Assembly: GCA_000961585.1 (NCBI GenBank)
Contig: LADN01000053.1
Location: 438-64,437 of the forward strand
Length of the DNA: 64,000 nucleotides
Reading direction: 5' to 3'
Origin: Peptococcaceae bacterium BRH_c4a
GTDB taxonomy: Bacteria; Bacillota; Desulfotomaculia; Desulfotomaculales; Desulfocucumaceae
Below are positions 1 to 17,802 of the stretch, one piece after another; the stretch's first letter is position 1, and each line of letters begins with the position of its first letter. Made by a program: the position numbers and the translations under genes. The notes beneath the pieces are model-generated. The model did not search any database. It saw nothing but the letters and a program-made list of their open reading frames with translations, and was not told the origin of the DNA.

Positions 1-77
1 TTGTTTGCTGTGCCGTTTTTTCACTTCAAGGACTTTTTCCTGCTGCCGTACATGTTTTCACGCTATCACCACCTGAA

Positions 78-124
78 ACTTGGGGAACCTTATTCTTAAC
101 AGATAAGGTTCCCCAAGTTTTTTC
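78..124. terminator. Intrinsic-terminator-like hairpin between flp and whatever lies to the left
   Basis: 14-bp perfect stem CTTGGGGAACCTTA / TAAGGTTCCCCAAG (79-92 / 104-117) followed by TTTTTT on the + strand. Only TTT follows on the minus strand, so it may serve a convergent + strand gene and/or flp. Confidence 0.6.
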
Positions 125-128: not shown

Positions 129-323
129 TTACTTAAGAGCGTCCGAGGCTTCTTTAATTTTATTTTTGACCCCTCCGCCCAGCAGGGAAAATCCAGCAAT
201 ACAAATTACAGCGATAAGGGCTATAATAAGGCCGTATTCCGCCATTCCCTGGCCCTGCTCATCCTGATGCACACTCTTGATTTGTTCGGTAATTCTTTTT
301 AGCACTCTTTTCACCCCCTTCAT
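129..323 (-). CDS. flp: Flp/Fap-family type IVc (Tad) prepilin
   Basis: 64-aa ORF with a charged leader, then GQG/MAEYGLIIALIAVICIAGF. This fits the Flp G-XXXXEY processing motif plus a hydrophobic helix. It is the last gene of the tad-like gene string. Confidence 0.8.
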   Translation of the reverse strand: MKGVKRVLKRITEQIKSVHQDEQGQGMAEYGLIIALIAVICIAGFSLLGGGVKNKIKEASDALK

Positions 324-379
324 GTCATAATTTTGAATAACGCATTGTCACCTGCCTTTTTTGGAGATTTTGACATACC

Positions 380-1231
380 TTAACTACCAAAAGCCGTTAA
401 CATATTCCAAAGAATCGGGAAGCCTATCATGGCGAAAAGCGGCAGAAGAATAAATACTATGATTGGGATAAGCAGCTTAATGGTCAGTTCTCCAGCAATC
501 TTTTGGGCCTCTTGTTTCCTTCTGGCGAGAATCTTCTCAGCGTGGTGTTTTACCACCGGCTCCAAGGGACTTCCATACCTCATTGCCTGCTGTATTTTAT
601 TAACCAGCCCGGTAAGTTCCGGTATCCCGCAGCGAAGTGACATTTTATTCAACGCCGCCGCCCTGTTATCCCCGGTGGCCATATCTGTGAGCACCCGGTT
701 GATTTCTTTGGACAGCCCCCCCGGCATGGTTCTGGCCACCACCTCCAGGGCCATGATCAGGTCAGCCCCCTTTAAGGCATTGCCCAAAAGCATACAGAAA
801 TCAGGTATGTCCTTTTTTATCGATCCGATCCTGGCCCTGACCATTTTGTTTAACCATATCCCCGGAGCCAGGTACAACAATAGAGCCGACAGAACACCCC
901 AGTAAAAATCAATCCATCCCGACAGCGCCGGCGCTATGAAAATGGCCAGCCCTATAACTGGTAAAGCAAACCGCAATCCGGCAAAATATTCGGGCTGCAT
1001 GTTTAAATCGGCCTGTATTAATTTTTTTTGCAGTACCGTAAGGGAAACATCATTGCCCAGTTTCCTGCCGGTTTTATGCAGCAGTTCATCGGCGCTCCCT
1101 TTTAGTTCGACCCCTCCGGGGAGCTTTAACCTGTTTCCCGCCACCGCCACCAGGATCGATAAGGCCATCAGTGTTCCGGCCAGCACGGCCACGTCGGCTT
1201 CTTTTATCCGTTCAGCCAGGTATCCCAGCAA
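380..1231 (-). CDS. tadC: TadC-like pilus platform protein (type II secretion system F family)
   Basis: 283-aa polytopic membrane protein whose cytoplasmic helical domain resembles GspF/TadC. It pairs with a paralogous upstream gene, 3 nt from the tadB-like stop. Confidence 0.7.
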   Translation of the reverse strand: MLGYLAERIKEADVAVLAGTLMALSILVAVAGNRLKLPGGVELKGSADELLHKTGRKLGNDVSLTVLQKKLIQADLNMQPEYFAGLRFALPVIGLAIFIAPALSGWIDFYWGVLSALLLYLAPGIWLNKMVRARIGSIKKDIPDFCMLLGNALKGADLIMALEVVARTMPGGLSKEINRVLTDMATGDNRAAALNKMSLRCGIPELTGLVNKIQQAMRYGSPLEPVVKHHAEKILARRKQEAQKIAGELTIKLLIPIIVFILLPLFAMIGFPILWNMLTAFGS

Positions 1232-1234
1232 AAA

Positions 1235-2065
1235 CTACACCCCCTGTCCCAGGGAATTTTTTATGATCTTTCTGGTAAATACATTTCCAAGGATAATCCA
1301 GACGGAGGACATAAAAAATACGAAGCTGCCTTCTGCCGTATGGAAAATAGGCTCCGTAAATTCCGGCGACATTGCCCTGGCAAGACCGATGAAAAGAAAG
1401 GGAAGTCCCGTTAGCAGCCTCATGGTCATCATGTTCTGGGACACGGCGGCTGAAACAATACTGCGAAAACTTTCTTTATCTTCATAGGCTTCCATGGAGT
1501 GGCGGCATATCTCCGCCAGGTCGCAGCCCACCCGGTTGTAAAGCCCTATGGCTATGGAAAGGGCTTTTAAATCCTCCCAGCCGGTTTCCTTTCTCACGCT
1601 CTCTATGGCCTGGGCCAGGGTATCTCCTGTCCTGGTTCTGCGAATCACCTCGTAAAAAACATCCCTGGCCGGCCGGGGCATGTTGGGCACGGCGTCCTCC
1701 AGGGCCTGATAGGGGTTCATCCCCCCGTACATGGCGCTTTCCAGCTGGCCCAGCACGTCTACGAACTGGCTGCTTAAAAGCTCCTTGCGATCCTCCTCCT
1801 GCTTGTTTTTCCACCACTTTAAAACAAAGGTGCCGGAGCATAGGCCCGGCACCGCAAAATACCACGTCCCGGTAATGGCATAGGCTATACCGCCAAGCCC
1901 TACCCCCCCGGCCAGTGTGATGATCAGGTCCTGGGAGGACTTTCCCGGCCCTTTCCGGGTATCGAATTTTTCATCACTGAGCCTTACCGACCGGGCTTTA
2001 AGCCTTATCTTACTCCCGGTTACCGCCCAAAAAACCGCCACTGCCATTAAAAAAGCCGCCAACAT
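1235..2065 (-). CDS. tadB: TadB-like pilus platform protein (type II secretion system F family)
   Basis: 276-aa protein with an N-terminal TM, a soluble helical domain and C-terminal TMs. It lies immediately (2 nt) downstream of the CpaF-type ATPase gene. Confidence 0.7.
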   Translation of the reverse strand: MLAAFLMAVAVFWAVTGSKIRLKARSVRLSDEKFDTRKGPGKSSQDLIITLAGGVGLGGIAYAITGTWYFAVPGLCSGTFVLKWWKNKQEEDRKELLSSQFVDVLGQLESAMYGGMNPYQALEDAVPNMPRPARDVFYEVIRRTRTGDTLAQAIESVRKETGWEDLKALSIAIGLYNRVGCDLAEICRHSMEAYEDKESFRSIVSAAVSQNMMTMRLLTGLPFLFIGLARAMSPEFTEPIFHTAEGSFVFFMSSVWIILGNVFTRKIIKNSLGQGV

Positions 2066-2067
2066 TA

Positions 2068-3435
2068 CTATACCGACTTATTCCACCCCCCTTCGTCGGT
2101 CATGGCCTCCCGTCGATGAAATTCCTCAGCCACCCATTCAAAGGAGTCTTCTTTGGGGTTGTACTGCCACAGTACGTTTAGTTTTAGATTAAGCACCCCT
2201 CCGTCCAACCTTTCGGCGCCTATTACCTCGCATATATGGTCCATCCTGCGCCTGCCTGTCCTGTCTTTTAAAACATGAATAAAAATGTCCACGGCGTCTG
2301 CCACCTGCTCCACTATGCCGTCGTAGGGCATATCCATTTTGGCCATCTGAACCATGTTTACCAAACGCTTGGTACAGTGCCTGGAAGAGTTGGCGTGGCC
2401 GGTGGTCATGGACCCCTTGTGGCCGGTATTCATGGCCTGCAGCATGTCAAAGGTCTCACCGGCCCTGCACTCTCCCAGGATTACCCTTTTGGGAGCCATT
2501 CTAAGGGCGTCCACCACCAGATCCCTCTGGGTTATCTCTATTTTTGTGTCTGCGGTGGCCGGCCTGGCCTCCAGGCTTCTGACATTTGAATGCTGGAGCT
2601 GCAGCTCGGCCGGATCCTCAATGGTGACAATGCTCTCCTCCTCCGGAATGAAGGAGGCCAGGCAGTTTAAAAAGGTGGTTTTTCCGGAGCTTGTGCCCCC
2701 GCTGATGACTATGTTTTGTTTTGATAAAACAGCGGCTTTTAAAAAATCCATTACCTCCGGGGAAATGACATTACGGTTAATCAGGTTTTCGGGTGTCATG
2801 TCTTTACGGAACCGGCGTATGGTAAACATTGTGCCGTGCACGGCCACCGGAGGTATGTGGGCAATCATCCTGGAACCGTCGATGAGCCGGGCGTTTACCT
2901 TGGGGTTGGCCATGTCTATCTTCCTGCCGGTGGGAGCCAGCATCCTTTCCAGCACGTCCCGGATATGTTCCTCGTCTCGGAATCTCACACCCTCGGCAAC
3001 ACGTTCCACCCCCTTTTTTTCCACCCTCACAATGTCTTTGCCGGCCTTTATTTCAGTGACTTCCGGGTCATAAAAAAAGGGCTCGATGGGCCCGTACCCC
3101 AGCAGATCGTTGCCCAGTTCCTCCACCAGCACCTTCGATTGCACCTCGCCCAGGGGAATGTCCTTTTCCAGCAGGCCCCTCAAAACTATTGACTTCAGCT
3201 TTGACCGCACTATGGGATCCCGGCTTTTTGTCCTCTCCTCGGGCTTCAATATATTGCTCAGGGTGGTCTGGACATAGCCCCGGATCGCCCTGTACTTCTC
3301 TTCGGTAAGCCCCGGTATTCTCTCGCTGATTAAAAGCGAATACCCCTCCGCCTTTTCAATCTCTGCTGTATCCTCTATGACGTATTCCCCGCACCTTTGA
3401 GCCAGGTTTTTAATTAATTCAAGGTCCATAATCAA
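2068..3435 (-). CDS. cpaF: CpaF/TadA-family pilus secretion ATPase
   Basis: 455 aa. Walker A ISGGTSSGKTTFLN, Asp box/Walker B IVTIEDPAELQ, His box MNTGHKGSMTTGHAN. This layout is typical of the VirB11/CpaF subfamily. Confidence 0.9.
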   Translation of the reverse strand: MIMDLELIKNLAQRCGEYVIEDTAEIEKAEGYSLLISERIPGLTEEKYRAIRGYVQTTLSNILKPEERTKSRDPIVRSKLKSIVLRGLLEKDIPLGEVQSKVLVEELGNDLLGYGPIEPFFYDPEVTEIKAGKDIVRVEKKGVERVAEGVRFRDEEHIRDVLERMLAPTGRKIDMANPKVNARLIDGSRMIAHIPPVAVHGTMFTIRRFRKDMTPENLINRNVISPEVMDFLKAAVLSKQNIVISGGTSSGKTTFLNCLASFIPEEESIVTIEDPAELQLQHSNVRSLEARPATADTKIEITQRDLVVDALRMAPKRVILGECRAGETFDMLQAMNTGHKGSMTTGHANSSRHCTKRLVNMVQMAKMDMPYDGIVEQVADAVDIFIHVLKDRTGRRRMDHICEVIGAERLDGGVLNLKLNVLWQYNPKEDSFEWVAEEFHRREAMTDEGGWNKSV

Positions 3436-4317
3436 TCACACCGCCCTTTCCCGAACCGGCAGCCTTCCGGCCAGCACCTGCAGCGCCCTGGTAAAGTCAT
3501 CCCTCTCACGGCTGTGGACCATCATCTGGCGCCGGTTGTTTTCTTCGGCCACAGCCACGGAATAGGGCATAACACCTAAAATATTCAGTCCCAGGCCGCT
3601 CTCCAATTCCCCGGCCCTTATTCCTCCGGGTATCCCGGCCTGGTTTAATACCGCGTATACTCTGTCCTGGCAGCCCAGCCTGGCCATGAAACAATTATTC
3701 TCATTGAGAAGGTCCAGACTTGCCCTGTCCGGCTTGAAAACAGTAAGGATCAAATCAGAAACAAGGGCAGCCGCCCATGTGTTGTTGCCTGTGCCGGCCG
3801 GCGGGCAGTCCAGTATTATATAATCATATGTTTCTTTGAGAAGTGTCAGCATTTTAAAAACCAGAGTTGGAGTAACCTTCTCCTCGTGGTCGTAGTGTAT
3901 AACCCCGGGCGCCACCATGATCCCCGATGAGTGGTTGTATAACCCCCTGATAATGTCCCTGGGGCCGTGTATGTCTTCCCAGTCCAGAATATTTACCAGG
4001 CACTGATCAGCCGGAAGCCCCATCCTGCTCCTTATGGTTCCATACCCGTCAAGATCAATCAGAGCCACCCTTTCCGGATTTGATAGGGCCAGCAAAGCGG
4101 CCATGTTCACAGCCACCGTTGTGGCCCCGTCCCCCTTGGCGGAACTTTGTACGGTGTATATTTTACCTTGCCCGGCCAAAGCGTCAGGGCTTATCGGGAT
4201 GTTATACAGCCTGGTATTCTTTTCCTGGGGTTCTATTATCTTTGGCCCGCCCTCGCCAGCCTTCCATAATACCACTTCCTCTTGCAGCCCGGGTTTGTCT
4301 TTTTTCTTAAAAAACAC
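3436..4317 (-). CDS. tadZ: TadZ/CpaE-like ParA/MinD-fold pilus localisation protein
   Basis: 293 aa. Deviant Walker A SAKGDGATTVAVNMA keeps the signature Lys but replaces the P-loop Lys with Ala. DYIILDCPP acts as Walker B. Zero-nt spacing to cpaF. Confidence 0.7.
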   Translation of the reverse strand: MFFKKKDKPGLQEEVVLWKAGEGGPKIIEPQEKNTRLYNIPISPDALAGQGKIYTVQSSAKGDGATTVAVNMAALLALSNPERVALIDLDGYGTIRSRMGLPADQCLVNILDWEDIHGPRDIIRGLYNHSSGIMVAPGVIHYDHEEKVTPTLVFKMLTLLKETYDYIILDCPPAGTGNNTWAAALVSDLILTVFKPDRASLDLLNENNCFMARLGCQDRVYAVLNQAGIPGGIRAGELESGLGLNILGVMPYSVAVAEENNRRQMMVHSRERDDFTRALQVLAGRLPVRERAV

Positions 4318-4319
4318 TG

Positions 4320-4982
4320 TTACTGCCCCCCTTTTACAGGAAGGAGGGAGATGGAAAACTTCTTGCCCCGGACTATCCCCTCGGCAACCTTTTTAGCCTC
4401 TTCAGGGGTGACGGCTATTATATAGGCCCCTTTTACCGTGGCGGCCCCCAGGGAATTGTCCTTTTCGGAAGAAGCAGGCGGAACCCTAACAATGACCGCC
4501 TCTTTGGCCACACAATCCACCATGCTGGCGGCGTCTTTGCCTATCTGTACGGAAATTTCACTGAACACATTGACCCTGTCCCCCACGGCCACCCCTTTCA
4601 GCCCGTTGGCGGTCTCGGCCGGCAGGTCCATTGCCTCTCTGCCCGGGGCCACCGAATTGAGGACGGCCTTTAAGCTCCCCAGATCCGAAGCTGTATGCCC
4701 CCTTCGCATTATTTCCCCCTTGAATATGGTCCCGGAAACCACCGTTTTACCCAGTAAATCTTGCAGTGATTTTTCAGCATCTTCGGGTAAGACAGAAGCC
4801 GGGTAGTCTTTCAGGACCACATGTTCCGGCGCAATGACGGCGCCGATTGGAAGTTTGACTGCCGCAACCGCCACCTTCTCACTGGGGGTGTTTATTTTGA
4901 CATAGTGCCAGACCATCCCGCCGGCCATTGAGGCCAGTAAAACAGCTATCAAAATATGTGCTATTTTTTTTAGACTGGACAA
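4320..4982 (-). CDS. cpaB: CpaB/RcpC-like Flp pilus assembly protein (N-terminal anchor plus SAF-type domain)
   Basis: 220 aa. N-terminal TM (HILIAVLLASMAGGMVW), then a beta-rich domain (VAAVKLPIGAVIAPEHV...) as in CpaB. It sits upstream of tadZ-cpaF as in canonical tad loci. Confidence 0.65.
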   Translation of the reverse strand: MSSLKKIAHILIAVLLASMAGGMVWHYVKINTPSEKVAVAAVKLPIGAVIAPEHVVLKDYPASVLPEDAEKSLQDLLGKTVVSGTIFKGEIMRRGHTASDLGSLKAVLNSVAPGREAMDLPAETANGLKGVAVGDRVNVFSEISVQIGKDAASMVDCVAKEAVIVRVPPASSEKDNSLGAATVKGAYIIAVTPEEAKKVAEGIVRGKKFSISLLPVKGGQ

Positions 4983-4991
4983 CCAATCACC

Positions 4992-6872
4992 TCAATTCCA
5001 AATAAATTCATCATCCTTATTCTTGATCATGGCCATGATCAAGGCATCGGCCGGGTTGTTCCTGATGATCACCTTTGGCTTCAGGCCTTCGGGTATGGAT
5101 GCGGCCACCCCCCGCATATCAATGCCGGTCACCACATTTTGCTTGCCGTCCATTATGTTTTTAACCCAGTGGGATGAAATTTTCAGCTCCACCTGGTCAT
5201 TTCCAGAGACTATTGCCAGTAAAACCGAACGGCCCTGGTGGGCCGCCTTTTGCGCCAAGGAAATATCCCCGGCAAAGTCAATTACTGTATAGGCTGCCGT
5301 TCGCCTGGCCTTCTTCAAAAGATCCCACAGCTCATTGTCAATAGCGGGTGACAGGCCCTTAACCGGGTCCACCGCATATATCCTCAGATTATCTTGTACA
5401 ATGGGATAGCTGGATCCGGGAACCCGCCAGTCGGACATCATCAGCACATCATCAGGCAGATCCAGCCACAGAGCGCCGGTGCTCTGTGCGGATGCCCCTA
5501 TGTAAGCCACCTCACTCCCCTCCACCTGACCTAATATCTTTACGGCCTGGGCGGAAAGCCTCCCGGCTAGGCCAGGCCTCCATGGAGTCACCACGGCAAG
5601 GATCCCACCCGGCACTATGGCGGTGGGATCCTTTAAATACAGGGTAAAGGTACTGCTTTCTTCCTCCAGGGGAATACCCCCGGACCTGTTTATCCTGGGC
5701 CTTCCCTTGCTTTTTACGGCCTTTTCCCCGTTCTTTTCGGATACCTTCCCTGCTCTCCGCTTCATGGCCCTGCCCAGCCTACCCGCCCCCTGCAGCAAAG
5801 CATTGACGGCTTTACCGGGCTCTGTCTCCAATGAAGGGCCGGAAACCTTGTCCGGTGATAAACGGCTTGCGGTTCCCTGCATTTCCTTAATTATGGCTGT
5901 AAGAACATAGACCAGCTCATCCCCGTAAATCTGCCCTCCAACCTCACAGGTGATCATATGGCGTATCCCGGCGCACCTGGCCCGGTGAACCATAGCCCTG
6001 CCCTCGTCATCCATCTGCCCCACTATGAAAAGTACCGCCGGCACATGCCCGGAGGCCCAGGCGGCCAGCTCATCGGCCCCGGGTATCCCTCCAATGGCGC
6101 TTTGTCTCATAATAATAAAAATATCTGGTGACAGTTGACTTATTTTTTGTCTTACCTCCTCGGACTCGGCCAGAGATGCCAGGACATCCATATGATCCGA
6201 AAAATTCCCCCTGATCCATTCCTCAATCCGGACATCCCCTATGGCCAGAAGGGCTCCGGGCTTCCCCAAACAAGGCCCGGCGGCTTTTTTAGAACCACTG
6301 ATGAACTCTTCTCCCCCAAGGGATAATGTAATCTTTGAAATCAGATCCCTGCCGATGTTAATACTTTCCTTCTTTTTAATGCCTGGTTTATTACTCTGTT
6401 CTGCAGGCCCGTAATTGATTTCCCCCTGTTCGCAGTCAGGCACCTCCCCGGCGCCAAAATCTGTAAAATCCGCAATGGACATGGGTTGTTCAATCCAGTT
6501 CAGCAGAGTGTCCTGGTCAAAATGTGATGTCTGGCGAATATCATAAATTCCCAGAGAAACTATTCTTTTTATCACCTCTGGGGTATTCCTGCTGGGCAGG
6601 ATAAGTAAAATTCTGCTCTTAGGGGCTAACAGCCTTATATCCCTCAATTTAATCAGCATGGACTGCAGCCGGTTGATTACCCCGTCGTTGGTCCCCGAGG
6701 CCTGGGCCAGCCCGTTTACAATAAAGAGGTCTGGGTGCAGCGGTTTTTTCTTCAGTGTAATAACAGCGGCATCCATGGTGTACTGGCTTCCAATGACATT
6801 AAAACCGTTTTTTTCCAGAGCCGAAACCAGACTGTCATTCATTCCGGCCCCCACCACCAGGTATATTTTCAA
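4992..6872 (-). CDS. Large cytoplasmic protein with receiver-like repeats and a degenerate ParA/TadZ-like C-terminal domain (function unknown)
   Basis: 626 aa. The start overlaps the M23 gene stop by 4 nt (ATGA). Two beta-alpha-beta receiver-like segments (MKIYLVVGAG..., ALLAIGDVRIEE...IFIIMRQ). The C-terminal ILAVVTPWRPGLAGRLSAQAV...YTVIDFAGD is laid out like a ParA fold but lacks P-loop lysines. No family was confidently recognised. Confidence 0.45.
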   Translation of the reverse strand: MKIYLVVGAGMNDSLVSALEKNGFNVIGSQYTMDAAVITLKKKPLHPDLFIVNGLAQASGTNDGVINRLQSMLIKLRDIRLLAPKSRILLILPSRNTPEVIKRIVSLGIYDIRQTSHFDQDTLLNWIEQPMSIADFTDFGAGEVPDCEQGEINYGPAEQSNKPGIKKKESINIGRDLISKITLSLGGEEFISGSKKAAGPCLGKPGALLAIGDVRIEEWIRGNFSDHMDVLASLAESEEVRQKISQLSPDIFIIMRQSAIGGIPGADELAAWASGHVPAVLFIVGQMDDEGRAMVHRARCAGIRHMITCEVGGQIYGDELVYVLTAIIKEMQGTASRLSPDKVSGPSLETEPGKAVNALLQGAGRLGRAMKRRAGKVSEKNGEKAVKSKGRPRINRSGGIPLEEESSTFTLYLKDPTAIVPGGILAVVTPWRPGLAGRLSAQAVKILGQVEGSEVAYIGASAQSTGALWLDLPDDVLMMSDWRVPGSSYPIVQDNLRIYAVDPVKGLSPAIDNELWDLLKKARRTAAYTVIDFAGDISLAQKAAHQGRSVLLAIVSGNDQVELKISSHWVKNIMDGKQNVVTGIDMRGVAASIPEGLKPKVIIRNNPADALIMAMIKNKDDEFIWN

Positions 6873-8326
6873 TTAGATACAGCCTCCTCTCCGGGCAAAG
6901 AGCCAAATAAGAGCACCGGGTCATGGTATTCCGTTTCCCCCGCCCCCGACCTGATCTCGAAATGAAGATGATCACCGTCGGACAGGCCGGTGGAATCAGC
7001 TCTGGCGATCTCCTGTCCCCGCCTTACCTCCTGGCCCGGCTGCACCGAAAAAGACATCAGGTGGGCATAAAGGGTTCTGTATTTGCCGTGGTTAATAATG
7101 ACAGTCTGACCATAACCAGTTACCCAGCCGGCCAAAATCACCTCTCCGTCCCAGGCCGAAAAAACCGGCGCACCCCTTGGAAGAGCTATGTCAGCACCCT
7201 TATGAAACCTGATCCCCCCCAGTATGGGATGATCTCTCCAGCCATAACCCGAAGTAATTTCTCTGTACTGGCCGGCGGGCCACCGGAACCTTCCCAATGG
7301 GCCTGTCTTAAGTGGGCTGGCGTTCTCGGTGTCAATAATCAACTCGGCCATATTTCCGGAAATTATGCTCACATTATATTTAAATTCGTCATCATAGTTC
7401 ATTGCCAGGTGCAGTATCAGCTCCAGGTTACTTATTTTAACCAGATCCTTTTCGGCCAGCAAGTCCCTGAGCTTTTGAAAATAAGGTCCCCTGTTGCGGG
7501 AATTCATAAAAACAGGATAGACTGCCTCTTCAACCAAATCCGACTGGGGATCTTTAGAAGAATATCTCTTTTTTTCCCACTGGTAGGTTATTTTTTCGGC
7601 GTCATAGGACTTCACCTCAGAAAGCAGCCTTATATTGTGCCTGTACACAGCGGTGAATCTCTCAGGCTCTTTATTATCCCCGCTCCCCCGTTGCTCCGTC
7701 CAGGAACGGCGATAGTAAAGTTCAAAGTCCCGCCATTGCAACTCCGGCTCGAGCCTTTTAAAATGCCCCCGGGGATCAGGCTTCCTGCCTGGCTGCCCGG
7801 TTATTACCGGATCTCCCAGCACCCGGTCCACAGCCGCCAGCAGGGCCCAGCTCACACCGTGCGGCTTTACCTGGGATCTTTCGGCGGGTATACCGCTGTC
7901 CTGATCATAAAAACGGCCCCATATTTGTTTTACCGTAGACTTGCCATCAGCACCGTTACCTCCATGATATTGTACCGGCGAATTATCCAGCGTCCCCTGA
8001 TCTATAAAACTGCCCATCCATTTCCGGTCCAAATCCATATACCTTTCATATAAATCCCTGTCATCTTCCAACTTCCAGTCATCCCTCTCACCGGTGTTAA
8101 AAATAGCCACCACCCTGCCCTGCTGACTGCCGCCATTTTTTAGCGCATCCTCAACTATATATTTGGGTATCAAAAAAAGAATGCAGTAAACAAAAAAGAA
8201 CAGCAGTATTATTAACAGCACCGGAGAGAGGTAGGCAGCCAGCCAGATAACCAGTCTTTTAAGCAGCGCCAATACAAATCTTCCGGCCAATCCCCGCACC
8301 ATATTTTCAATCATGATGACGTCCAT
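6869..8326 (-). CDS. Membrane-anchored M23 (LytM-type) peptidoglycan endopeptidase
   Basis: 485 aa. N-terminal TM (VLLIILLFFFVYCILFLI). C-terminal M23 signature HKGADIA...GQTVIINHG...YAHL...GDHLHFEIR. This position is typical for the cell-wall hydrolase of Gram-positive T4SS loci. Confidence 0.8.
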   Translation of the reverse strand: MDVIMIENMVRGLAGRFVLALLKRLVIWLAAYLSPVLLIILLFFFVYCILFLIPKYIVEDALKNGGSQQGRVVAIFNTGERDDWKLEDDRDLYERYMDLDRKWMGSFIDQGTLDNSPVQYHGGNGADGKSTVKQIWGRFYDQDSGIPAERSQVKPHGVSWALLAAVDRVLGDPVITGQPGRKPDPRGHFKRLEPELQWRDFELYYRRSWTEQRGSGDNKEPERFTAVYRHNIRLLSEVKSYDAEKITYQWEKKRYSSKDPQSDLVEEAVYPVFMNSRNRGPYFQKLRDLLAEKDLVKISNLELILHLAMNYDDEFKYNVSIISGNMAELIIDTENASPLKTGPLGRFRWPAGQYREITSGYGWRDHPILGGIRFHKGADIALPRGAPVFSAWDGEVILAGWVTGYGQTVIINHGKYRTLYAHLMSFSVQPGQEVRRGQEIARADSTGLSDGDHLHFEIRSGAGETEYHDPVLLFGSLPGEEAVSN

Positions 8327-8350
8327 CCTTGATACCCTGACTTCTTATAC

Positions 8351-10507
8351 CTATCTCCAGCAGGAGTCAGCACCCCCTGATCCCCCGCTATGCTGCGCAC
8401 CTTTAATTTTATTAAACATCTGCCTGTAGTCCTGCGCCTGCCTTATCTTATCAAACTGCTTACCCAGGCTGGCCGTTTGTCCTTCATTGGTGGAGTGTTT
8501 TTGGTATTGGGCCGATGCGGTGAATTCCATGGCCCTATCCAGCCTCTCCCTGGCCTCGGGCGCCGTCAGGGGCGCTATGGCCCTGGAAACCCTGGATGCC
8601 GTTGCTGCGGCGGCGGCAGCGGTGTTGCCTATAACATTGTCCCCCAGTGCCCTTCTGGCAAGGCTTGCAGTTACACCCGGATCCAACAGCATTGAGTTGT
8701 CAACTATTCCGGAGGCCCCGGCCAAACCCTTTTCCCTTGCCTCCGAAATAAATTGTTTTACACCGTACCCACTACTGTTGACAGCTCTGGAAGCCGACTT
8801 GCCAATGTTTAACCCCGCTTGCAGCCCGCTACCGGATTCCCCTGTGGCAGCCCCCGAAAGCATGCTGCCCGCCATAGCCGCAAAACCCGAAACCCCCAGT
8901 CCCACCGCCCCTCTGGCAAGGTATCCCGCAACACCGGGAACTCCCCTGCCCGGCGCCGAAAAAAACCCTCCTTTCATCTGACCACCAGTTACTCCTTTAA
9001 CCCCCGCACCTCCCTGCGCCCCTCCGGCTGATCCCCCCGCTCCCCCTGCCGGCATCAACCCTGCCGGTCCGCCTTTTTCCCCACCTCCACTCCTTAACAT
9101 ACCTCCCAGTGAGAAAAAGGCCCCCATTCCCAAAGCCGAGCCAATCCCGGCCACAAAGCCTCCCTCGGATAACCCCAGCGCCCCCCGCACCAAGCTGTTG
9201 ATGGCGGGCAAGGTCAGCAGACAAACCAGTGTAACCCAGAAGTCACCACTATATAGAAAACGGATAAAGAATGCCAGGCCTACGGCAAAGCCGGCAGGCA
9301 TGAAAACATAGGAGGCAAATTCCCTGACCCATACGGTTAGGACATTCCGCCTCCCCGGATAAATGGCATTAATTAAAGCGATGGGCAATATTCCTATCAA
9401 AATAGCGATAAATACCTTCCGGACGGCAAACTGAAAGTTTATCACCCCCACTGACAGGCATGCCAGCAAAGCCATAAAGGCCGATCCCAACGATCTGGTT
9501 TCCTCGTTGTATATGGTGCGCAAAACAGACTGGTGAACCTCGTCAGCTATTACACCGTGGCAAAGGGCTACCACTGCCCTGTTTACATCAAAAAAGAAAC
9601 CCAGAAGGTAGGGTCCCAGCTTCAGCAGAAGGGCACACAGCAAAACACCGGTTATATATCCCCTCACCCTGTCGGCGGAACCGGCGCTGGCGGAACTAAA
9701 CAGGGCCAGGGCCCCTGCTATTACAACGGCCACCGCCATGAAAACCGGCGCCGCCTCTTTGGCATGGGTGTAAAAGTCGCTGATCATCTCAAATTCTTTA
9801 ACGTTAAAAACACCCCAGATGAGCTCTTTATTCTTCCCGCTGTCCTCCCGGGGCCGGTAAGAGTCTTTCAGATCAATATCAAATACCAACTCCAGGGGAT
9901 CATACAGACCGGTTACCTTGACCAGCCAGTTTGGCAACGCCATGATCAGATCGGCAGCCATCCTTTCCGGATAGTCTGCCGACTTCCCCTCATCCTTTGC
10001 TCTGTCTCTCCAGGTTATTGCTTTTTTATCGCCCCCCTGATCGGCCTTATTCTGTTCCTCCCCCTTCCTGTCACTGTTACCCTGGGAAACAACCGACCGG
10101 CTTTTAGTCTCAGCCACATAGATATTACCCCTGTTGACCCGGTAGAAATATGTGTGGGAGGGCTTGACATTCTCGTCATACAGCTCAATATACTCCCCGG
10201 AGTTTGCAGGATGGCTGAAAACAACGGGATCCAGCTCCAGATCCCCTATTTTTAACCTTGTATCCCCGGACTTCATTGTATTGTTGATATTGTAGTGCCA
10301 GAAATCAGTCCCCCTGGCCTCCCACCTCTCAACGGAGTAGCCGGCCACTCCCTGCTGGGGCTCCCAGATCACCTTTACTATATTTCTGTCCCGCACAAGG
10401 CCCACCGTCAGATACATCACCGGCCTTCCTGTCTGTGCCCAAGCTGCGGAACATATACCGGCGATGGCGGCAAAAACAATAAGCGCAGCCAGCCTCCTAG
10501 TTGGCAT
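8351..10507 (-). CDS. VirB6/TrbL/TcpH-like polytopic channel protein with N-terminal ectodomain and Gly-rich tail
   Basis: 718 aa. Signal peptide (...SAAWAQ), then a roughly 100-aa beta-rich FN3-like segment ending YFYRVNRG. At least 7 hydrophobic helices, then a roughly 200-aa Gly/Ala/Ser-rich tail. The ATG overlaps the VirB4 stop by 11 nt. Confidence 0.5.
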   Translation of the reverse strand: MPTRRLAALIVFAAIAGICSAAWAQTGRPVMYLTVGLVRDRNIVKVIWEPQQGVAGYSVERWEARGTDFWHYNINNTMKSGDTRLKIGDLELDPVVFSHPANSGEYIELYDENVKPSHTYFYRVNRGNIYVAETKSRSVVSQGNSDRKGEEQNKADQGGDKKAITWRDRAKDEGKSADYPERMAADLIMALPNWLVKVTGLYDPLELVFDIDLKDSYRPREDSGKNKELIWGVFNVKEFEMISDFYTHAKEAAPVFMAVAVVIAGALALFSSASAGSADRVRGYITGVLLCALLLKLGPYLLGFFFDVNRAVVALCHGVIADEVHQSVLRTIYNEETRSLGSAFMALLACLSVGVINFQFAVRKVFIAILIGILPIALINAIYPGRRNVLTVWVREFASYVFMPAGFAVGLAFFIRFLYSGDFWVTLVCLLTLPAINSLVRGALGLSEGGFVAGIGSALGMGAFFSLGGMLRSGGGEKGGPAGLMPAGGAGGSAGGAQGGAGVKGVTGGQMKGGFFSAPGRGVPGVAGYLARGAVGLGVSGFAAMAGSMLSGAATGESGSGLQAGLNIGKSASRAVNSSGYGVKQFISEAREKGLAGASGIVDNSMLLDPGVTASLARRALGDNVIGNTAAAAAATASRVSRAIAPLTAPEARERLDRAMEFTASAQYQKHSTNEGQTASLGKQFDKIRQAQDYRQMFNKIKGAQHSGGSGGADSCWR

Positions 10508-12497
10508 CGACCGGAGCCCCCCTTAAAATCCCAACCACATCGTTGGGATCACTGGTAAACATCATGTACTCCCTGGGTGTATGGGTTATATTGATAAGGG
10601 CGGAGTCGTTATCAACCTTAATAATTCCCTGCCCCTTCCTAAAAAGTAAAGTGCAGGCCGCCTCACCCTCACTGAGGTTGAATTTTTCCTGCACCGCCTC
10701 AATATCAACGCTGTCCTGCTTTAATAAAATTTTCGTGGTAGAATTTTTAAGAACTCCAATTCCCTGCTCAACTCTCAGGAAGACCTCAAAACCCTGGGTG
10801 GCGCTGCACATGGAAATATTCTTTTTCCTGGCCCGGCGAAAAGCGTTTTCCATCCACCCGGCCAGTTCGGGGACACTTTTATCCATTATTAGCTGAGATT
10901 CGTCGGTTACAATCATTTTCAGAATGGATCGGTCACTGCCAAATATCTCCCAGGTCCACTTGGTGGCTATAAAAAGACCCAAAGGCCTCAATATCTCCTC
11001 ATCCAGGTCGGCCACACAGATTGTAAAGGCCTGGCACCTGGATATATCCACGTTTGACTGGCAGTCAAATATGGAATTTGACCTGGAACCTCCATACCTG
11101 GTGAAGGTTTCAAGAATATCCGAGGCCTTTGCCAGCTCAGGCTCTTCCCGCATTAAATTATAGAGGTCGGAAAGCTCCGGCATTGTTTTCTTACGCCTCT
11201 CCATATGAAATACAGAGTCGACCGGTTCCTCCGTTTCATACAAATCATCAAGGTCTTCGGTTATTCCTTTATCACTGTATAATTTTTTAATCAGGCACTC
11301 AATTTTTATCTTCACGTTTCCGGTGAGAATCTCATCCCTGTTGTCATAGCCCCTGATCATCCTGAAAACCACCGCTCTTACAGCCTTTACAGTTTCCTCC
11401 ACATTGACCCTTACCTTCCCGTCCTCATCCTCGGACTCGTAAAGGTCAAACATATTGATCCTGTGACGGCTGTAGGGCGAAAGCTCGATATGGGGAAAGC
11501 CCAGGGCGCACATCAGATTTCTGTATTCTTTTTCGGGCGCCGGGTCCACAATGGCCACCCTTACATCCTTGTACCCCGACTGGGTTAAAATGGGTGTCAC
11601 CAGCAGCCTGGCCACCATCAATTTGATTAAAAAACTCTTACCAAAGCCCGACCTGCCAAAAATAACAATATTGTAATTACCATTGTTATGGTGCCACGGA
11701 TTAAAAAAAACCAATTTCCCCAGGTTGTCCTCACCAATCACAATACCGCTTTTATGCCTTATCCCCCCCGCCCCAAAGGGAAACCAGTCAGCCAGATTGG
11801 AGGCCTCGGCGTTCCTGAAGGGATAATTTATCCTGCCGGGGTCCAGCGGGGTCATATTCAATAAAGCTGTCAGATGATTACCATCGGCAGGCCGTAAAAC
11901 AATACCCTTACCGGCAAAGCTTTTCACCAGCATGTTGCAAAAACGGCCGAAAACATCTATATCAGTGGCCGAGGCCAGCACCTGCACCGCTGTATTCATA
12001 ATGGACTCATCCCCGGAGACCAGGTTTACGTGCTGGCGCTGAAGATCCTGGATCTCCCTGATAATTCTCTGCTTCCTGGCCGGATTTGGCTCTTCCTTAT
12101 AGGCCACCTCTTTCTGGGCTATTTTTTGCTCCAGGTTCCACATGGTCCTCTCGGGGTCGGTGGGCGTAACATGAATGGCCACATCGCAGTCGGCTTCACC
12201 AAAATCACCGGCTAAAAGGCCGTTCAACATTCCGGCCTGGGTATAGCTGGTGGTCAGGGCGGCATAAAAGTTGCGAAAATACCTGGCCATCTCGGTGGTG
12301 CTTCCAATTTCCACGTAATAGTCACCGGTTCTTTGACCAAGGAGGTTTTTATCTCCCGGGATTATTTCCCTTATAACAGAAGGAGCCATAAAATCCCTGT
12401 AATTGGCCGCACCCATCACTATGTCAGGCTGCTCCTTGCCCGGGGGCTGGTTTCCGGGCACTCTGACTTCTCCGGTCTTTCTCTTCCAGAACTTCAT
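10497..12497 (-). CDS. virB4: VirB4/TrsE/TcpF-family type IV secretion ATPase
   Basis: 666 aa. Walker A GRSGFGKSFLIKL, Walker B MIVTDESQ, RKKNISMCSATQ motif. The N-terminal domain pattern (APSVIREI...DYYVEIGS...YFRNFY...GMLNGLL) resembles Gram-positive VirB4s. GGAGGG lies 8 nt upstream of ATG 12497. Confidence 0.85.
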   Translation of the reverse strand: MKFWKRKTGEVRVPGNQPPGKEQPDIVMGAANYRDFMAPSVIREIIPGDKNLLGQRTGDYYVEIGSTTEMARYFRNFYAALTTSYTQAGMLNGLLAGDFGEADCDVAIHVTPTDPERTMWNLEQKIAQKEVAYKEEPNPARKQRIIREIQDLQRQHVNLVSGDESIMNTAVQVLASATDIDVFGRFCNMLVKSFAGKGIVLRPADGNHLTALLNMTPLDPGRINYPFRNAEASNLADWFPFGAGGIRHKSGIVIGEDNLGKLVFFNPWHHNNGNYNIVIFGRSGFGKSFLIKLMVARLLVTPILTQSGYKDVRVAIVDPAPEKEYRNLMCALGFPHIELSPYSRHRINMFDLYESEDEDGKVRVNVEETVKAVRAVVFRMIRGYDNRDEILTGNVKIKIECLIKKLYSDKGITEDLDDLYETEEPVDSVFHMERRKKTMPELSDLYNLMREEPELAKASDILETFTRYGGSRSNSIFDCQSNVDISRCQAFTICVADLDEEILRPLGLFIATKWTWEIFGSDRSILKMIVTDESQLIMDKSVPELAGWMENAFRRARKKNISMCSATQGFEVFLRVEQGIGVLKNSTTKILLKQDSVDIEAVQEKFNLSEGEAACTLLFRKGQGIIKVDNDSALINITHTPREYMMFTSDPNDVVGILRGAPVDAN

Positions 12498-13293
12498 AAT
12501 CCATACCCTCCAAAAAAAATTGTGGTGTATCCGAGGTCATGAAAATGGAAAAAATATCCTCCCTGTCAGCATCGGAAATACTGAAATGGGGTGCCAGATC
12601 CCGGTTAAAGGTGCTGTAAATCATGTCCAGAACCTCCTGCCTATTCAGATTCCTGGAGACAATATCCATTCCCTCCAGCGCGGAACTGACCACCCCTCCC
12701 ATGATCCTCAGCTCATCCACCGCCATCCTGCGCAGATCCCTTTCCGGAATACCCGACTTCTGAAGCCCCGACAAAGAGGAAAGGGCATTATTCAACAATG
12801 GATTACCGGTCTTTACACCGCTCTCTATACCCTTTGAAGCTGAATCAATCTTTAGTATTATGTAGCACCTGCGATCCCTGTTCTGCCTGTTTTCCGATTT
12901 TTTCTCCAGCCACTGGGACAGCTCATAACCATATTCCCTTAACAGCGGTATTTTTTTGCCCGAACAATCTTTAATGCTGTCAAGGTAATCCCTTAAATCC
13001 AGAAAACGGGTTTCTATTTTAAGAGCGTAGGGAATGTTTATGGTCTGTACCAGATTCCTAAATCCCAGCCACAGGCTTTGCCGCTCCTTAAAGGATTTAA
13101 GGCTTTCATTTACCGGCTCCACCTCCACCACCAGTCTGAATCTTAACCCGGGCAGCTCTATGATACCGTCCGGGTATATTTCCCTGTAGCTCAAAAGATC
13201 CTGGCAGGTAACAGCCTTTTTTTCCTTTTTCATGCCGAAGATCAAGAAATACAGGCAGGCGATAACTCCTGAAAAGAATAAGAGATCGGCCAC
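12424..13293 (-). CDS. Membrane-anchored T4SS-associated protein (unknown; soluble part resembles a VirB4 N-terminal-type domain)
   Basis: The ORF is open from 13422. I prefer the GTG at 13293 because GGGAGG sits 9 nt upstream and it follows the PrgI-like stop by 1 nt. That start gives 289 aa with an N-terminal TM (LLFFSGVIACLYFLIFG). The 3' end overlaps virB4 by 74 nt. The function call is weak. Confidence 0.4.
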   Translation of the reverse strand: MADLLFFSGVIACLYFLIFGMKKEKKAVTCQDLLSYREIYPDGIIELPGLRFRLVVEVEPVNESLKSFKERQSLWLGFRNLVQTINIPYALKIETRFLDLRDYLDSIKDCSGKKIPLLREYGYELSQWLEKKSENRQNRDRRCYIILKIDSASKGIESGVKTGNPLLNNALSSLSGLQKSGIPERDLRRMAVDELRIMGGVVSSALEGMDIVSRNLNRQEVLDMIYSTFNRDLAPHFSISDADREDIFSIFMTSDTPQFFLEGMDYEVLEEKDRRSQSARKPAPGQGAA

Positions 13294-13294
13294 C

Positions 13295-13624
13295 TCAATC
13301 ACCCTCCCGGCGGTATACAAATATCCGTCTTCTAAACCTGGAGGAAAGCTTATCAAACAGGCTGGGCGCCATAATCCTGCCGGTGACGTTATCCTCCAGA
13401 AATACCAGGGCAGCCGCCGCATAAAGCGGTATTCCCTGGTGAAAATGCCTCAGCATAAAATTATCAACAGGCAAATCGGGAATAACTCTGGACAGCTCGT
13501 AGCTCAGTTTGCCTGCGGCCATGACAACCAGCAGCTGAATCAAAGTCATGCCGAAAATAAACCTTTCGGCACTGGTTTTCTGTATAAGAGGATGCCTGTC
13601 TCCGTACAAAAATGTCACCTCCAA
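13295..13624 (-). CDS. PrgI/VirB3-like small membrane protein
   Basis: About 105 aa. ERFIFGMTLIQLLVVMAAG plus a second hydrophobic helix and a basic tail, as in PrgI-family proteins that precede VirB4 in Firmicutes elements. The start is uncertain (TTG 13624, GTG 13618 or TTG 13609 after GGAGG). Confidence 0.5.
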   Translation of the reverse strand: MEVTFLYGDRHPLIQKTSAERFIFGMTLIQLLVVMAAGKLSYELSRVIPDLPVDNFMLRHFHQGIPLYAAAALVFLEDNVTGRIMAPSLFDKLSSRFRRRIFVYRREGD

Positions 13625-13630
13625 CAGAAT

Positions 13631-13708
13631 AACCGCCTATCGGCGGTGCCGTCTTGCAGACGGCGGAATCCAGAATCCAGAAGCCAGAATCCAGAATAGT
13701 GACAGCAA
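13631..13708. repeat. Mosaic intergenic repeat, copy 1 (hairpin module + CCAGAAT heptamer array + GTGACAGC linker)
   Basis: Hairpins CCGCC-TATC-GGCGG and GCCGTCT-TGC-AGACGGC. Then CCAGAAT/CCAGAAG x4 (13670-13697), then AGTGACAGC. A 30-nt block, TGCCGTCTTGCAGACGGCGGAATCCAGAAT, is identical to 16778-16807. Confidence 0.85.
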
Positions 13709-13810
13709 TGTTACATAATACAACATGACGGGATAATCGGGCTTCGCCCGATGCGCCTTACATCCCCAGGCTTAAAAGCCGGGGCTTTACGGCGCATTTG
13801 GGTAATTCAG

Positions 13811-14248
13811 CTATTTAACGATATCATTGAGTGGGACATTCAAAATATCCAGCACGAAAGCCACTATTGCCTCTGCCTTGTATACCAGCACCGCTGAAAG
13901 GGTGGCTGTTACTCCGCCCCCTTTGATGATCTCAACCTTCCTGGAATCCCTTAGCCCGCCCCCCGCAGCCTGAACTCCCATAAACAAAACCGCAATGGCA
14001 AAGAAAGTGATAAACAGCGTCCTGACGGAATTAACTATGCTCCCTCCTATTTTGCCCACCTGATTTTTCAATTCATCAGCACCCTGACTGCTAACCCCCT
14101 TGGACAGGTCATAGTCGGCTTTCTGACTGGAAGTTTCTGCCTGGGCAGGATCTATTACTCCCTGCATTGTTAAAAGAGGCATTATCGATACAATCATGAT
14201 GAAAAGCATAAAGGCAGCTGTATACGTTGGATTAAGCCTGATATTCAT
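13811..14248 (-). CDS. Small secreted/membrane protein, candidate VirB2/TrbC-like T4SS pilin
   Basis: 145 aa. N-terminal signal/anchor (...DPAQAETS), then two hydrophobic helices split by a short charged loop (LFITFFAIAVLFMGVQAAGGGLRDSRK...VTATLSAVLVY). This is VirB2-like topology, called by architecture and position only. Confidence 0.35.
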   Translation of the reverse strand: MNIRLNPTYTAAFMLFIMIVSIMPLLTMQGVIDPAQAETSSQKADYDLSKGVSSQGADELKNQVGKIGGSIVNSVRTLFITFFAIAVLFMGVQAAGGGLRDSRKVEIIKGGGVTATLSAVLVYKAEAIVAFVLDILNVPLNDIVK

Positions 14249-14290
14249 TGGGACACCCCCATAAATGTTTAATAAGGATCATGGTTAATG

Positions 14291-15499: not shown

Positions 15500-15589
15500 G
15501 CTTAAGAAACATTTTATACTGACATATACTTATAGTCAACAGATTTTTAAAATATTTTAAACATTTTAGGCTTCCCATTGCAGCAGTAT

Positions 15590-15621
15590 AGTTTCTTCTG
15601 TGTGCAACAGAATGATATAAT
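15590..15621 (+). promoter_or_regulatory. Candidate extended -10 promoter for the XRE repressor gene
   Basis: TGATATAAT (15613-15621) lies about 20 nt upstream of ATG 15640. The -35 is poor. It sits in the 140-bp divergent region, which also contains the palindromes GTTTC-N8-GAAAC and AAAATATTTT. Confidence 0.35.
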
Positions 15622-15639
15622 AACACATGAGGTATACAT

Positions 15640-16347: not shown

Positions 16348-16355
16348 GAACATAA

Positions 16356-16757
16356 ATGAAAAATCTGATCAAGGTAGACCAAAAAACACGCCGGGACAAA
16401 ATACTGGAATTGCTTAAATACAGAAACCTGACTCTGGGCGATGTCCGAAAGGCTGCGGGCTTATCCAGGGCCACCATGAGCCGCCTGATGAACAGCCCCG
16501 AAGGCTATGCGCCATCGGAGGACACCATAAAAAAAATTGCCCTGGTACTGGAGGTCAACCCCTTATATCTTAAGGATGAAAATGTTGTGGGCCCGGAGGA
16601 GATTTTTCCCTATCTCACCGAAGATGACATAAAGTTTTTCATGGACCTGAAAAATTTGCCCTTTATAAAGCTCACCAAAGAAATTGCAGCCGAGGGAATA
16701 AGCCCCGATGATATGAGGAAATTAGTGCAAATACTGCTGTCTACCCGGGACGACTAA
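16356..16757 (+). CDS. XRE-family HTH transcription regulator
   Basis: 133 aa. RNLTLGDVRKAAGLSRATMSRLMNSPEG..PSEDTIKKIALVLEVNPLYL is a classic HTH_3 pattern. Confidence 0.6.
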   Translation: MKNLIKVDQKTRRDKILELLKYRNLTLGDVRKAAGLSRATMSRLMNSPEGYAPSEDTIKKIALVLEVNPLYLKDENVVGPEEIFPYLTEDDIKFFMDLKNLPFIKLTKEIAAEGISPDDMRKLVQILLSTRDD

Positions 16758-16760
16758 AAT

Positions 16761-16890: not shown

Positions 16891-16892
16891 TT

Positions 16893-17759: not shown

Positions 17760-17802
17760 CAGTTCCCGGCCATTGTTATACTCGCTATTTTATTTTCAAC
17801 AA

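Follow-up and report, generated by a model that had tools for sequence, protein, structure and literature searches.

A chromosomal gene string joining a VirB4-type secretion module to a Tad/Flp pilus module in a Peptococcaceae bacterium

The 64,000-nucleotide (nt) stretch of Peptococcaceae bacterium BRH_c4a analysed here (contig LADN01000053.1, positions 438 to 64,437 of the forward strand; hereafter the window) carries a cluster of 14 co-oriented minus-strand genes that runs from 15499 to 129 with short gaps or overlaps, all of them intact, and that places a type IV secretion system (T4SS)-type module directly ahead of a Tad/Flp pilus module. The two halves are tightly coupled, their linkage is conserved across Clostridia and Bacilli, every gene is under purifying selection, and the cluster holds no DNA-processing genes. 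We favour, with about an even chance of being right, the reading that this locus is a chromosomal copy of a hybrid T4SS-Tad envelope machine found widely on the plasmids and islands of Bacillota, in which a TadZ-like pseudo-ATPase would join the two modules. The window locus would then represent a coupling-protein-less chromosomal variant of a known, functionally uncharacterised Bacillota T4SS-Tad hybrid.

Organisation of the gene cluster

The gene order is sigma-like regulator, VirB2/TrbC-like, PrgI/VirB3-like, split VirB4, VirB6-like, M23, TadZ-like 626-aa (amino acid) protein, CpaB, TadZ, CpaF, TadB, TadC and Flp, with the following positions:

14291..15499, minus strand: 402-aa regulator with sigma-70 region-4 and Cro/C1-type helix-turn-helix (HTH) domains (Pfam Sigma70_r4_2 2.5e-7, HTH_26); first gene of the cluster
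13811..14248, minus strand: VirB2/TrbC-like membrane protein, 145 aa; signal-like N-terminus and two hydrophobic helices
13295..13609, minus strand: PrgI/VirB3-like small membrane protein (p109), ~104 aa; longest open reading frame (ORF) from 13624
12424..13293, minus strand: membrane-anchored N-terminal domain of split VirB4, ~289 aa; longest ORF 332 aa from 13422
10497..12497, minus strand: VirB4-family ATPase, 666 aa; overlaps the VirB4 N-domain gene by 74 nt
8351..10507, minus strand: VirB6/TrbL-like polytopic membrane protein, 718 aa; N-terminal signal or transmembrane (TM) segment, ~230-aa external domain, six TM segments and a Gly-rich C-terminal part
6869..8326, minus strand: membrane-anchored M23 peptidoglycan endopeptidase, 485 aa (Pfam Peptidase_M23 6.7e-30); two N-terminal TM segments
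4992..6872, minus strand: TadZ-like pseudo-ATPase, 626 aa; receiver-like N-domain(s), then a C-domain resembling ParA/MinD in which Walker A is destroyed; overlaps the M23 gene by TTGA
4320..4982, minus strand: CpaB/RcpC (TIGR03177 8.3e-15; SAF 6e-6; RcpC 1e-4)
3436..4317, minus strand: TadZ/CpaE-like ParA-family protein (AAA_31 7.5e-12; ParA 2e-7)
2068..3435, minus strand: CpaF/TadA secretion ATPase (T2SSE 9.8e-45; Walker A GGTSSGKT)
1235..2065, minus strand: TadB platform protein (T2SSF 2.2e-9)
380..1231, minus strand: TadC platform protein (T2SSF 4.2e-14)
129..305, minus strand: Flp prepilin, 58 aa from GTG 305 (PF04964 Flp_Fap 2.3e-8); longest ORF from ATG 323

A renewed ORF call returned the reading frames and the strand given in the preliminary description of this DNA, and its junction sizes from the PrgI/VirB3-like gene to flp were reproduced (1 nt, a 74-nt overlap, an 11-nt overlap, 24 nt, a 4-nt overlap, and then 9, 2, 0, 2, 3 and 56 nt); its view of the two halves as a single tightly coupled gene string is upheld. 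The 4-nt overlap of the M23 and 626-aa genes had been given as ATGA and is in fact TTGA, with a TTG start and the ribosome-binding site AGAGGAGG. Moreover, the sigma-region-4/HTH gene at 14291-15499, absent from the earlier gene list, is a member of the conserved cluster. The likely starts of the genes for p109, the VirB4 N-domain protein and Flp are probably shorter than the longest ORFs. Specifically, p109 probably starts at TTG 13609, a codon preceded by GGAGGTG, the VirB4 N-domain gene most likely starts at GTG 13293, and flp probably starts at GTG 305 and encodes 58 aa, so that the tadC-flp gap would be 74 nt rather than 56. A 58-aa flp gene is also called on identical contigs.

The cluster was scanned on both strands for terminator-like and promoter-like motifs, which are in themselves no evidence of function; 30 terminator-like motifs against 20.9 +/- 4.8 in shuffled sequence and 29 promoter-like motifs against 17.2 +/- 3.7 are not clearly above expectation. 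An internal terminator or promoter dividing the halves was rejected, with counts near the shuffled expectation and none at the 6869-6872 junction. The gene string is presumably co-transcribed.

The T4SS-type half

Profile searches sustain the VirB4 and VirB6 assignments that had been proposed from the sequence. The 666-aa VirB4 protein matches the NCBIfam models conju_CD1110 (1.8e-41) and TraC-F-type (9e-39) below every curated cut-off, and so falls outside all curated subfamilies; it further resembles the VirB4 C-domain of known structure (PDB 4AG5, 1e-21), retains an intact Walker A motif (GRSGFGKS) and has a ratio of nonsynonymous to synonymous substitution (dN/dS) of 0.04-0.085. The gene before it, previously listed as an anchored protein, is on sequence grounds the membrane-anchored N-terminal domain of the same, split VirB4: it has one N-terminal TM segment, matches conju_CD1110 at model positions 2-125 (E 3.8e-4), with PF26593 TraC-like on its homologs, has a dN/dS of 0.04-0.13 and is a gene of its own in every locus of the clade. 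The 718-aa VirB6-like protein has 7 hydrophobic segments and weak matches to Pfam TrbL (1.1e-4) and NCBIfam CD3337/EF1877 (0.004); its homolog in locus L009 matches PF19590 TrbL_3, and a search of the 718-aa protein against PDB sequences returned no match.

The small membrane proteins are recognised through their families. The 145-aa VirB2-like protein of the window (p145) has no direct Pfam match, and among the 15 members of its family PF18895 T4SS_pilin is found in 8 and PF04956 TrbC in 7; precomputed TrbC/T4SS_pilin matches are also present on the p145 homologs of loci L008 and L009. PF12666 PrgI is found in 6/10 members of the p109 family, whose counterparts on pXO1, on the Bt407 megaplasmid and in Geobacillus carry the PGAP name "PrgI family mobile element protein". 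A hydrolase (M23, SLT or NlpC/P60) occupies the position of the M23 gene in all relatives.

Orthologs of the regulator (dN/dS 0.19-0.27) stand immediately upstream of the VirB2-like gene in loci L005, L011, L013-L016 and L031, and its position is filled by a sigma-region-4 protein on plasmid relatives as well. In Bacilli and on plasmids, a trio of sigma-region-4, NusG-like and RecD2-like helicase genes precedes the VirB genes (L060 3511-7029, and the same positions in L010, L033-L036, L039-L049 and L052-L058), and the window lineage keeps only the sigma-like/HTH gene.

Taken against a Gram-positive conjugative T4SS, the locus has the VirB4-family ATPase, the VirB6-like channel, the VirB3/PrgI-like protein and the wall hydrolase; it lacks a type IV coupling protein and a relaxase with an integration or replication module, and housekeeping genes flank it, upstream in the window and downstream in relatives.

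The TadZ-like protein at the boundary

The 626-aa protein, which follows the M23 gene, has no Pfam or NCBIfam match and had been taken as a protein of no known family. Profile-profile comparison assigns it to the TadZ-like pseudo-ATPases: in hhalign, its family profile matches the ParA domain of a TadZ profile with a probability of 96% (E 5e-9), and the search against PDB gives weak SIMIBI/MinD/ParA matches. The family has RPGLAGR where GVGxTT is expected, with the Walker A motif lost, and its receiver-like N-domain is conserved. It is a rare family, with 140 representatives among 1.8 billion proteins, and almost every VirB4 locus has a member; the Tad locus L064, which has no VirB module, has none. 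On the strength of its sequence and distribution, this protein is a candidate coupler between the two machines.

Links to cyclic di-GMP (c-di-GMP) occur at several points. A GGDEF insert (1e-40) is present in 2/16 members of the 626-aa family (e.g. L029 16089-18212), a GGDEF gene lies within the gene cluster downstream of flp in relatives (L069 18480-19319; L070 16473-17312), and a PilZ protein (window 18215-18955) and an HD protein are encoded 4-5 kb upstream of the cluster.

The Tad/Flp half and the DNA beyond flp

The Tad half comprises Flp with its G/XXXXEY processing motif (predicted cleavage G/MAEYG in ...GQG/MAEYGLII), the CpaF/TadA ATPase with two T2SSF proteins, a TadZ/CpaE ParA-like protein and CpaB/RcpC. 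CpaF has a dN/dS of 0.05-0.15, and the Walker A motif of TadZ (3436..4317) reads KGDGATT, without the GK[ST] lysine.

No copy of an A24 prepilin peptidase (TadV/CpaA), TadE/TadF or TadG lies inside the window, in agreement, for the peptidase and TadE/F, with the preliminary description; the relatives carry these genes past flp, and their absence is probably a window-edge effect. The region beyond flp was walked for ~20 kb in relatives with 85-92% identical VirB4, through TadC and second-set TadB look-ups. Here flp is followed by an A24 prepilin peptidase, a Cu_amine_oxidN1 protein with a ~510-aa partner, two TadE genes, TadG and often GGDEF; specifically, the peptidase lies 65-130 nt or a few genes past flp in L062, L063, L069 and L070, and the genes matching PF07811 TadE and PF13400 Tad are found 4-6 kb past flp. 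Farther downstream come a second CpaB/T2SSE/T2SSF/T2SSF set, two more Flp-like genes and several secreted proteins, and this supercluster, ~40 kb in total, is followed by methyl-accepting chemotaxis protein (MCP), dehydrogenase and fumarase genes. The second, divergent Tad-like set is present in all close relatives and comprises a CpaB-like protein, a T2SSE protein 39% identical to CpaF, two T2SSF, two Flp-like and a TadE-like protein; the VirB-less locus L064 also holds it. Its coordinates are as follows:

L062, 17695-20852: second Tad set
L071, 8081-12627: second Tad set
L072, 8109-12630: second Tad set

The Cu_amine_oxidN1 protein and its ~500-aa secreted partner recur in clusters of Clostridia, Bacilli and plasmids (L008 18317-20728; L060 28871-31329; L062 12464-15109) and could be a family-specific surface component.

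Neither a coupling protein (VirD4/TraG/TcpA/FtsK-like) nor a relaxase was found among the window ORFs (outside the cluster, none of the large ORFs is a candidate), and, together with the lack of VirB11, this bears out what had been noted from the sequence. The ~40-kb supercluster of the relatives likewise holds no coupling protein, relaxase or integrase, and its unannotated downstream proteins have no Walker A/P-loop, although a novel relaxase among unannotated proteins could escape relaxase searches. Moreover, jackhmmer searches seeded with the coupling protein, Replic_Relax, ParM and topoisomerase of a Brevibacillus plasmid found no chromosomal match within flanks of +/-10 kb.

Conservation, linkage and selection

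A scan of species-representative genomes found 49 loci across Clostridia and Bacilli, carried by Peptococcaceae-like metagenome-assembled genomes (MAGs), Desulforamulus, Desulfallas, Pelotomaculum, Bacillus, Cohnella, Brevibacillus and ~15 Paenibacillus species; close homologs come from subsurface MAGs of Peptococcaceae/Desulfocucumaceae type. By profile mapping, the order VirB2, PrgI, VirB4-N, VirB4, VirB6, hydrolase, TadZ-like and Tad genes is kept in nearly all 49. The synteny proposed for the two modules was examined in the loci whose sequence extends 9.5 kb or more downstream from VirB4 (n=29) and held throughout: Tad or TadZ-like genes lie downstream of the VirB module in 29/29, and a T2SSE ATPase lies within 10 kb in 20/29. 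The pairwise distances of VirB4 and T2SSE are correlated (Mantel r 0.75), a value reached by 0/2000 permutations.

All genes of the cluster have dN/dS values of 0.04-0.27 at an unsaturated dS of ~0.6, indicating purifying selection on both halves; in the comparison with L005, the values are 0.085 for VirB4, 0.074 for CpaF, 0.20 for VirB6, 0.205 for the 626-aa protein and 0.19 for M23.

The T2SSE proteins of the window's Tad set (set 1) and of the downstream set (set 2) are both ~30% identical to the Brevibacillus ATPase, and these identities favour neither set as the ancestral partner of the VirB module; the way the genes are arranged in L008 and L026 hints that set 1 may be a later insertion. 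In the wider VirB4 group, the Bt407 megaplasmid has the split VirB4 set and no Tad genes within 18 kb, so the Tad link is not universal there. In L064, a NusG-like gene stands directly before the Tad genes.

Relatives on plasmids and islands and comparison with known systems

VirB and Tad sets occur together on plasmids of Brevibacillus marinus and Brevibacillus laterosporus, on Alicyclobacillus pAACI01, on Geobacillus pGspE55-1, where the Tad module lies upstream of the VirB module, and on Bacillus anthracis pXO1. The plasmids of Brevibacillus marinus (NZ_CP034542), Brevibacillus laterosporus (pAZOBL1), Alicyclobacillus acidocaldarius (pAACI01) and Sulfobacillus (pL15/pY0017) have the same order as the window from the VirB2-like gene to flp, with a 29-37% identical VirB4, a TadZ-like gene after the hydrolase and a Cu_amine_oxidN1 surface protein; the Sulfobacillus plasmids have been published as carrying a conjugation system with T4SS and type II secretion system homologs. 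Unlike the window lineage, which has none of these genes and instead, as seen in its relatives, a second Tad set downstream, these plasmids encode a TraG/VirD4-type coupling protein and, in some cases, Replic_Relax, a RecD2-like helicase, a NusG-like protein, and partition and replication genes. The coupling protein, with TraG-D_C and TrwB_AAD_bind domains, is present on the Brevibacillus, Alicyclobacillus and pXO1 elements, Replic_Relax on Brevibacillus plasmids and pXO1, and the RecD2-like helicase on some; NusG-like and sigma-like regulators, SSB, primase, ArdC and topoisomerase IA complete the set.

The pXO1 cluster shares with the window a PrgI-family protein, a separate ~300-aa VirB4 N-domain protein, a DUF87 VirB4, an AAA ATPase of TadZ type, a CpaF/VirB11-family ATPase, a platform protein and small genes resembling pilins, all on one strand of one element; in BLASTP, the VirB4 proteins are 25% identical over 635 aa (E 5e-40) and the CpaF/VirB11-family ATPases 27% (E 2e-39). 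It differs in being on a plasmid, with an FtsK-type translocase and Replic_Relax next to the cluster, and in having its modules ~10 kb apart, the Tad-like set first and without translational coupling, and the sequences are very distant. This putative type IV/type II-like secretion cluster is cited by Gilmour et al. 2010 (reference 50; PMC2834635), whose Listeria island LGI1 is an operon-like 50-kb island with virB4, virB6, virB11, cpa and tad pilus genes and a wall hydrolase; the authors compared it with the pXO1 cluster and noted similar regions in Clostridium and Desulfitobacterium (PMC2834635). LGI1, likened here by description, differs from the window in its virD4, dnaG, serine recombinases, inverted repeats and NlpC/P60 hydrolase, and virD4, dnaG, the recombinases and the inverted repeats therefore make it look like a mobile island. 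The window thus has the split VirB4 set, the CpaF/VirB11-family ATPase and the TadZ-like ATPase of the pXO1/LGI1 type in a co-oriented cluster, and is chromosomal where that type sits on plasmids or islands together with an FtsK/TraG-type translocase and either Replic_Relax or recombinases. The architecture, called non-textbook in the preliminary description, is not without precedent: annotations from 2007-2011 already give T4SS and type II/Tad components for pXO1, LGI1 and the Sulfobacillus plasmids.

VirB4 proteins of the wider group (23-34% identity) are found on 313 Bacillota plasmids, 238 of them from Bacillus, and MOB-suite classifies 206 as non-mobilizable.

Outside this group, a conjugation ATPase and channel are co-encoded with a type IV pilus for donor-recipient contact in the IncI1 R64 thin pilus system and in PAPI-1 (PMC12857230). 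The same 2025 review of T4SSs makes no mention of Tad-linked systems (PMC12857230); the pXO16 tip locus was considered as a possible experimentally proven relative and set aside, the review offering no sequence-level link. R64 and PAPI-1 are unlike the window in their type IVb pili, diderm hosts, coupling protein and relaxase, and two separate gene clusters, and they provide the best functional analogy for a T4SS-Tad hybrid. In archaea, the Ced system comprises a VirB2-like, VirB6-like and VirB4-like set without coupling protein or relaxase and acts with Ups type IV pili, which belong to the archaeal type IV pilus/Tad branch; Ced and Ups are encoded at separate loci. In gene content alone, the window has the Ced-like architecture of VirB2-, VirB6- and VirB4-like proteins without coupling protein or relaxase.

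Proposed function and alternative explanations

If the window encodes a hybrid T4SS-Tad machine, one long transcript would be produced from a promoter near the sigma-like regulator gene, the M23 enzyme would open the peptidoglycan, and CpaF, TadB and TadC would extrude Flp filaments that establish or stabilise contact between cells or of a cell with a surface, while the VirB4/VirB6 channel would carry a macromolecule through the membrane at that same place and the TadZ-like proteins would position both assemblies together. In this scheme, we infer both the physical cooperation of the halves and the substrate. The ancestral job was most likely conjugative mating-pair formation, with the Tad pilus in the role of the IncI thin pilus, because the plasmid relatives encode a coupling protein and some of them Replic_Relax and a RecD2-like helicase. 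In the window lineage, the coupling and DNA-processing genes are absent and selection persists; the machine would therefore serve transfer substrates supplied in trans or have been recruited for another contact-dependent task. A more speculative and rather improbable extension would make the chromosomal supercluster a bacterial counterpart of Ups plus Ced, in which Tad pili would aggregate kin and VirB4/VirB6 would import or exchange chromosomal DNA, as a domesticated plasmid mating apparatus under selection in deep-subsurface Peptococcaceae-like bacteria.

Several observations weigh against a cooperating hybrid. The Mantel correlation partly reflects host kinship, and the T2SSE proteins linked to this VirB4 clade are 18-30% identical between groups, against 35-45% for VirB4, a gap that repeated replacement of modules would explain no less well than prolonged co-evolution. 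The related Tad supercluster of L064 stands alone, without a VirB module, and the Tad genes therefore do not need one; in L063 (2856-4265), a resolvase fragment and an IS200/605 OrfB occupy the precise junction of a truncated M23 gene with the TadZ-like gene, and the tolerance of this insertion sequence (IS) makes strict coupling dispensable. No VirB8-like (PrgL/TraM-type) protein was recognised in the Pfam results, no structure-based search having been made, and, with no coupling protein, canonical conjugation cannot be driven by the locus alone. Finally, no experiment exists on any member of the family, and pXO1, LGI1 and the Sulfobacillus plasmids are described by annotation only.

These points lead to the alternative of two independent systems side by side, namely a Tad/Flp adhesion "colonisation island" co-transcribed next to a T4SS-derived module with no cooperation between them, which we consider unlikely. 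Besides the autonomous double Tad supercluster of L064, the very heterogeneous T2SSE partners and the tolerated insertion in L063, it draws on the Tad loci known as Gram-positive plasmid cargo, e.g. on a P. acnes plasmid, and on the GGDEF gene of the relatives and the PilZ protein of the window, which fit a role in biofilm or adhesion. Mere adjacency does not readily explain why the linkage is kept in 29/29 informative genomes and on several unrelated plasmids, even with rearranged order, why a 4-nt start/stop overlap lies at the boundary, and why the TadZ-like gene is inherited with the VirB module and not with the Tad module.

An ordinary integrative conjugative element (ICE), whose coupling protein, relaxase and integrase would act in trans from outside the window or from another part of the genome, would be in keeping with the TraG/VirD4-type proteins, the occasional Replic_Relax, and the topoisomerase IA, ArdC, SSB and primase of the plasmid relatives. 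The window is cut ~130 nt after flp, and the strain's own sequence differs from that of the relatives right past the flp hairpin, where these have DUF192 or A24 peptidase genes; all assemblies of the window's population break within 0.1-0.5 kb beyond this hairpin, which suggests a repeat or an insertion. The preliminary description had named a relaxase, coupling protein and integrase just outside the window as what would make the locus such an element, and the relatives speak against this: over the ~20 kb walked past flp, their cluster runs through Tad genes and secreted proteins into the housekeeping MCP, dehydrogenase and fumarase genes, and an ordinary ICE was rejected on that account. The lack of a Walker A in the unannotated downstream proteins, the lack of chromosomal matches to the coupling-protein and Replic_Relax seeds, and the 50 kb of housekeeping DNA upstream of the cluster in the window point the same way, and we regard an ICE with factors in trans as improbable. 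A decaying, non-functional remnant of an integrated plasmid or ICE appears very improbable: the lack of both coupling protein and relaxase and the disrupted population variants (VirB6 split in L007, the 626-aa gene split in L001, VirB4 split in L028, M23 truncated next to an IS in L063) would suit it, and are set against 14 intact genes in the window, low dN/dS at unsaturated dS for every one of them and synteny across several genera of Peptococcaceae-like MAGs.

Significance

The new elements are the breadth and near-constancy of the VirB4-Tad linkage, the TadZ-like gene travelling with the VirB module, and the selected chromosomal variant without coupling protein that is fused to a double Tad set. 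To our knowledge, no conjugative pilus is known for Gram-positive bacteria, and partner finding in their conjugation is for this reason usually ascribed to surface adhesins; the Tad-linked VirB4 clade suggests that these bacteria have a little-studied kind of transfer apparatus that does possess a filament. The VirB4-Tad linkage is found on plasmids (pXO1), on islands (LGI1) and on chromosomes, the last in many cultured species of Paenibacillus, of Bacillus and of Desulfotomaculum-type bacteria, and since MOB-suite labels most such plasmids non-mobilizable, their mobility may be underestimated. The chromosomal variant raises the further question of what a conserved VirB4/VirB6 module does without a coupling protein. 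The cultured carriers, among them Desulforamulus putei DSM 12395, Cohnella thermotolerans DSM 17683 and Alicyclobacillus acidocaldarius DSM 446 with pAACI01, make both questions testable, and the value lies in the family rather than in the single locus.

Non-coding elements and genomic setting

Two structured non-coding elements accompany the cluster:

13625..13810, minus strand: structured intergenic region of 186 nt, 3' of the VirB2-like gene (RNA fold -79.2 kcal/mol, z = -4.15 against shuffles)
76..120, no strand assigned: perfect 18-bp hairpin 3' of flp; a T-run follows on the plus strand, so that the canonical terminator reading is on the strand opposite to flp

The intergenic region closes with a small hairpin and U-rich tail at 13647-13632; it is a possible attenuator, and its structure may tune the ratio of the VirB2-like membrane protein to the downstream machine genes. 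The position and core of the flp hairpin are kept in relatives (alignment with L062 and L063, ~11110-11170).

The rest of the window is chromosomal housekeeping DNA, with nif genes, an ammonium transporter, a Mur ligase and an S-layer homology (SLH) protein. A nitrogenase-type gene run with four Oxidored_nitro proteins and the ammonium transporter occupies 41566-51815, and the host is likely a diazotroph. A metallo-beta-lactamase (MBL)-fold protein (16893-17759), whose orthologs weakly match the Anti-Pycsar Apyc1 family, adjoins the cluster. The G+C content falls to 0.42-0.45 at 14001-24000, immediately upstream of the cluster, whose own values are 0.49-0.54, and this low-G+C stretch spans the regulator, HTH, MBL, PilZ, HD and major facilitator superfamily (MFS) genes.

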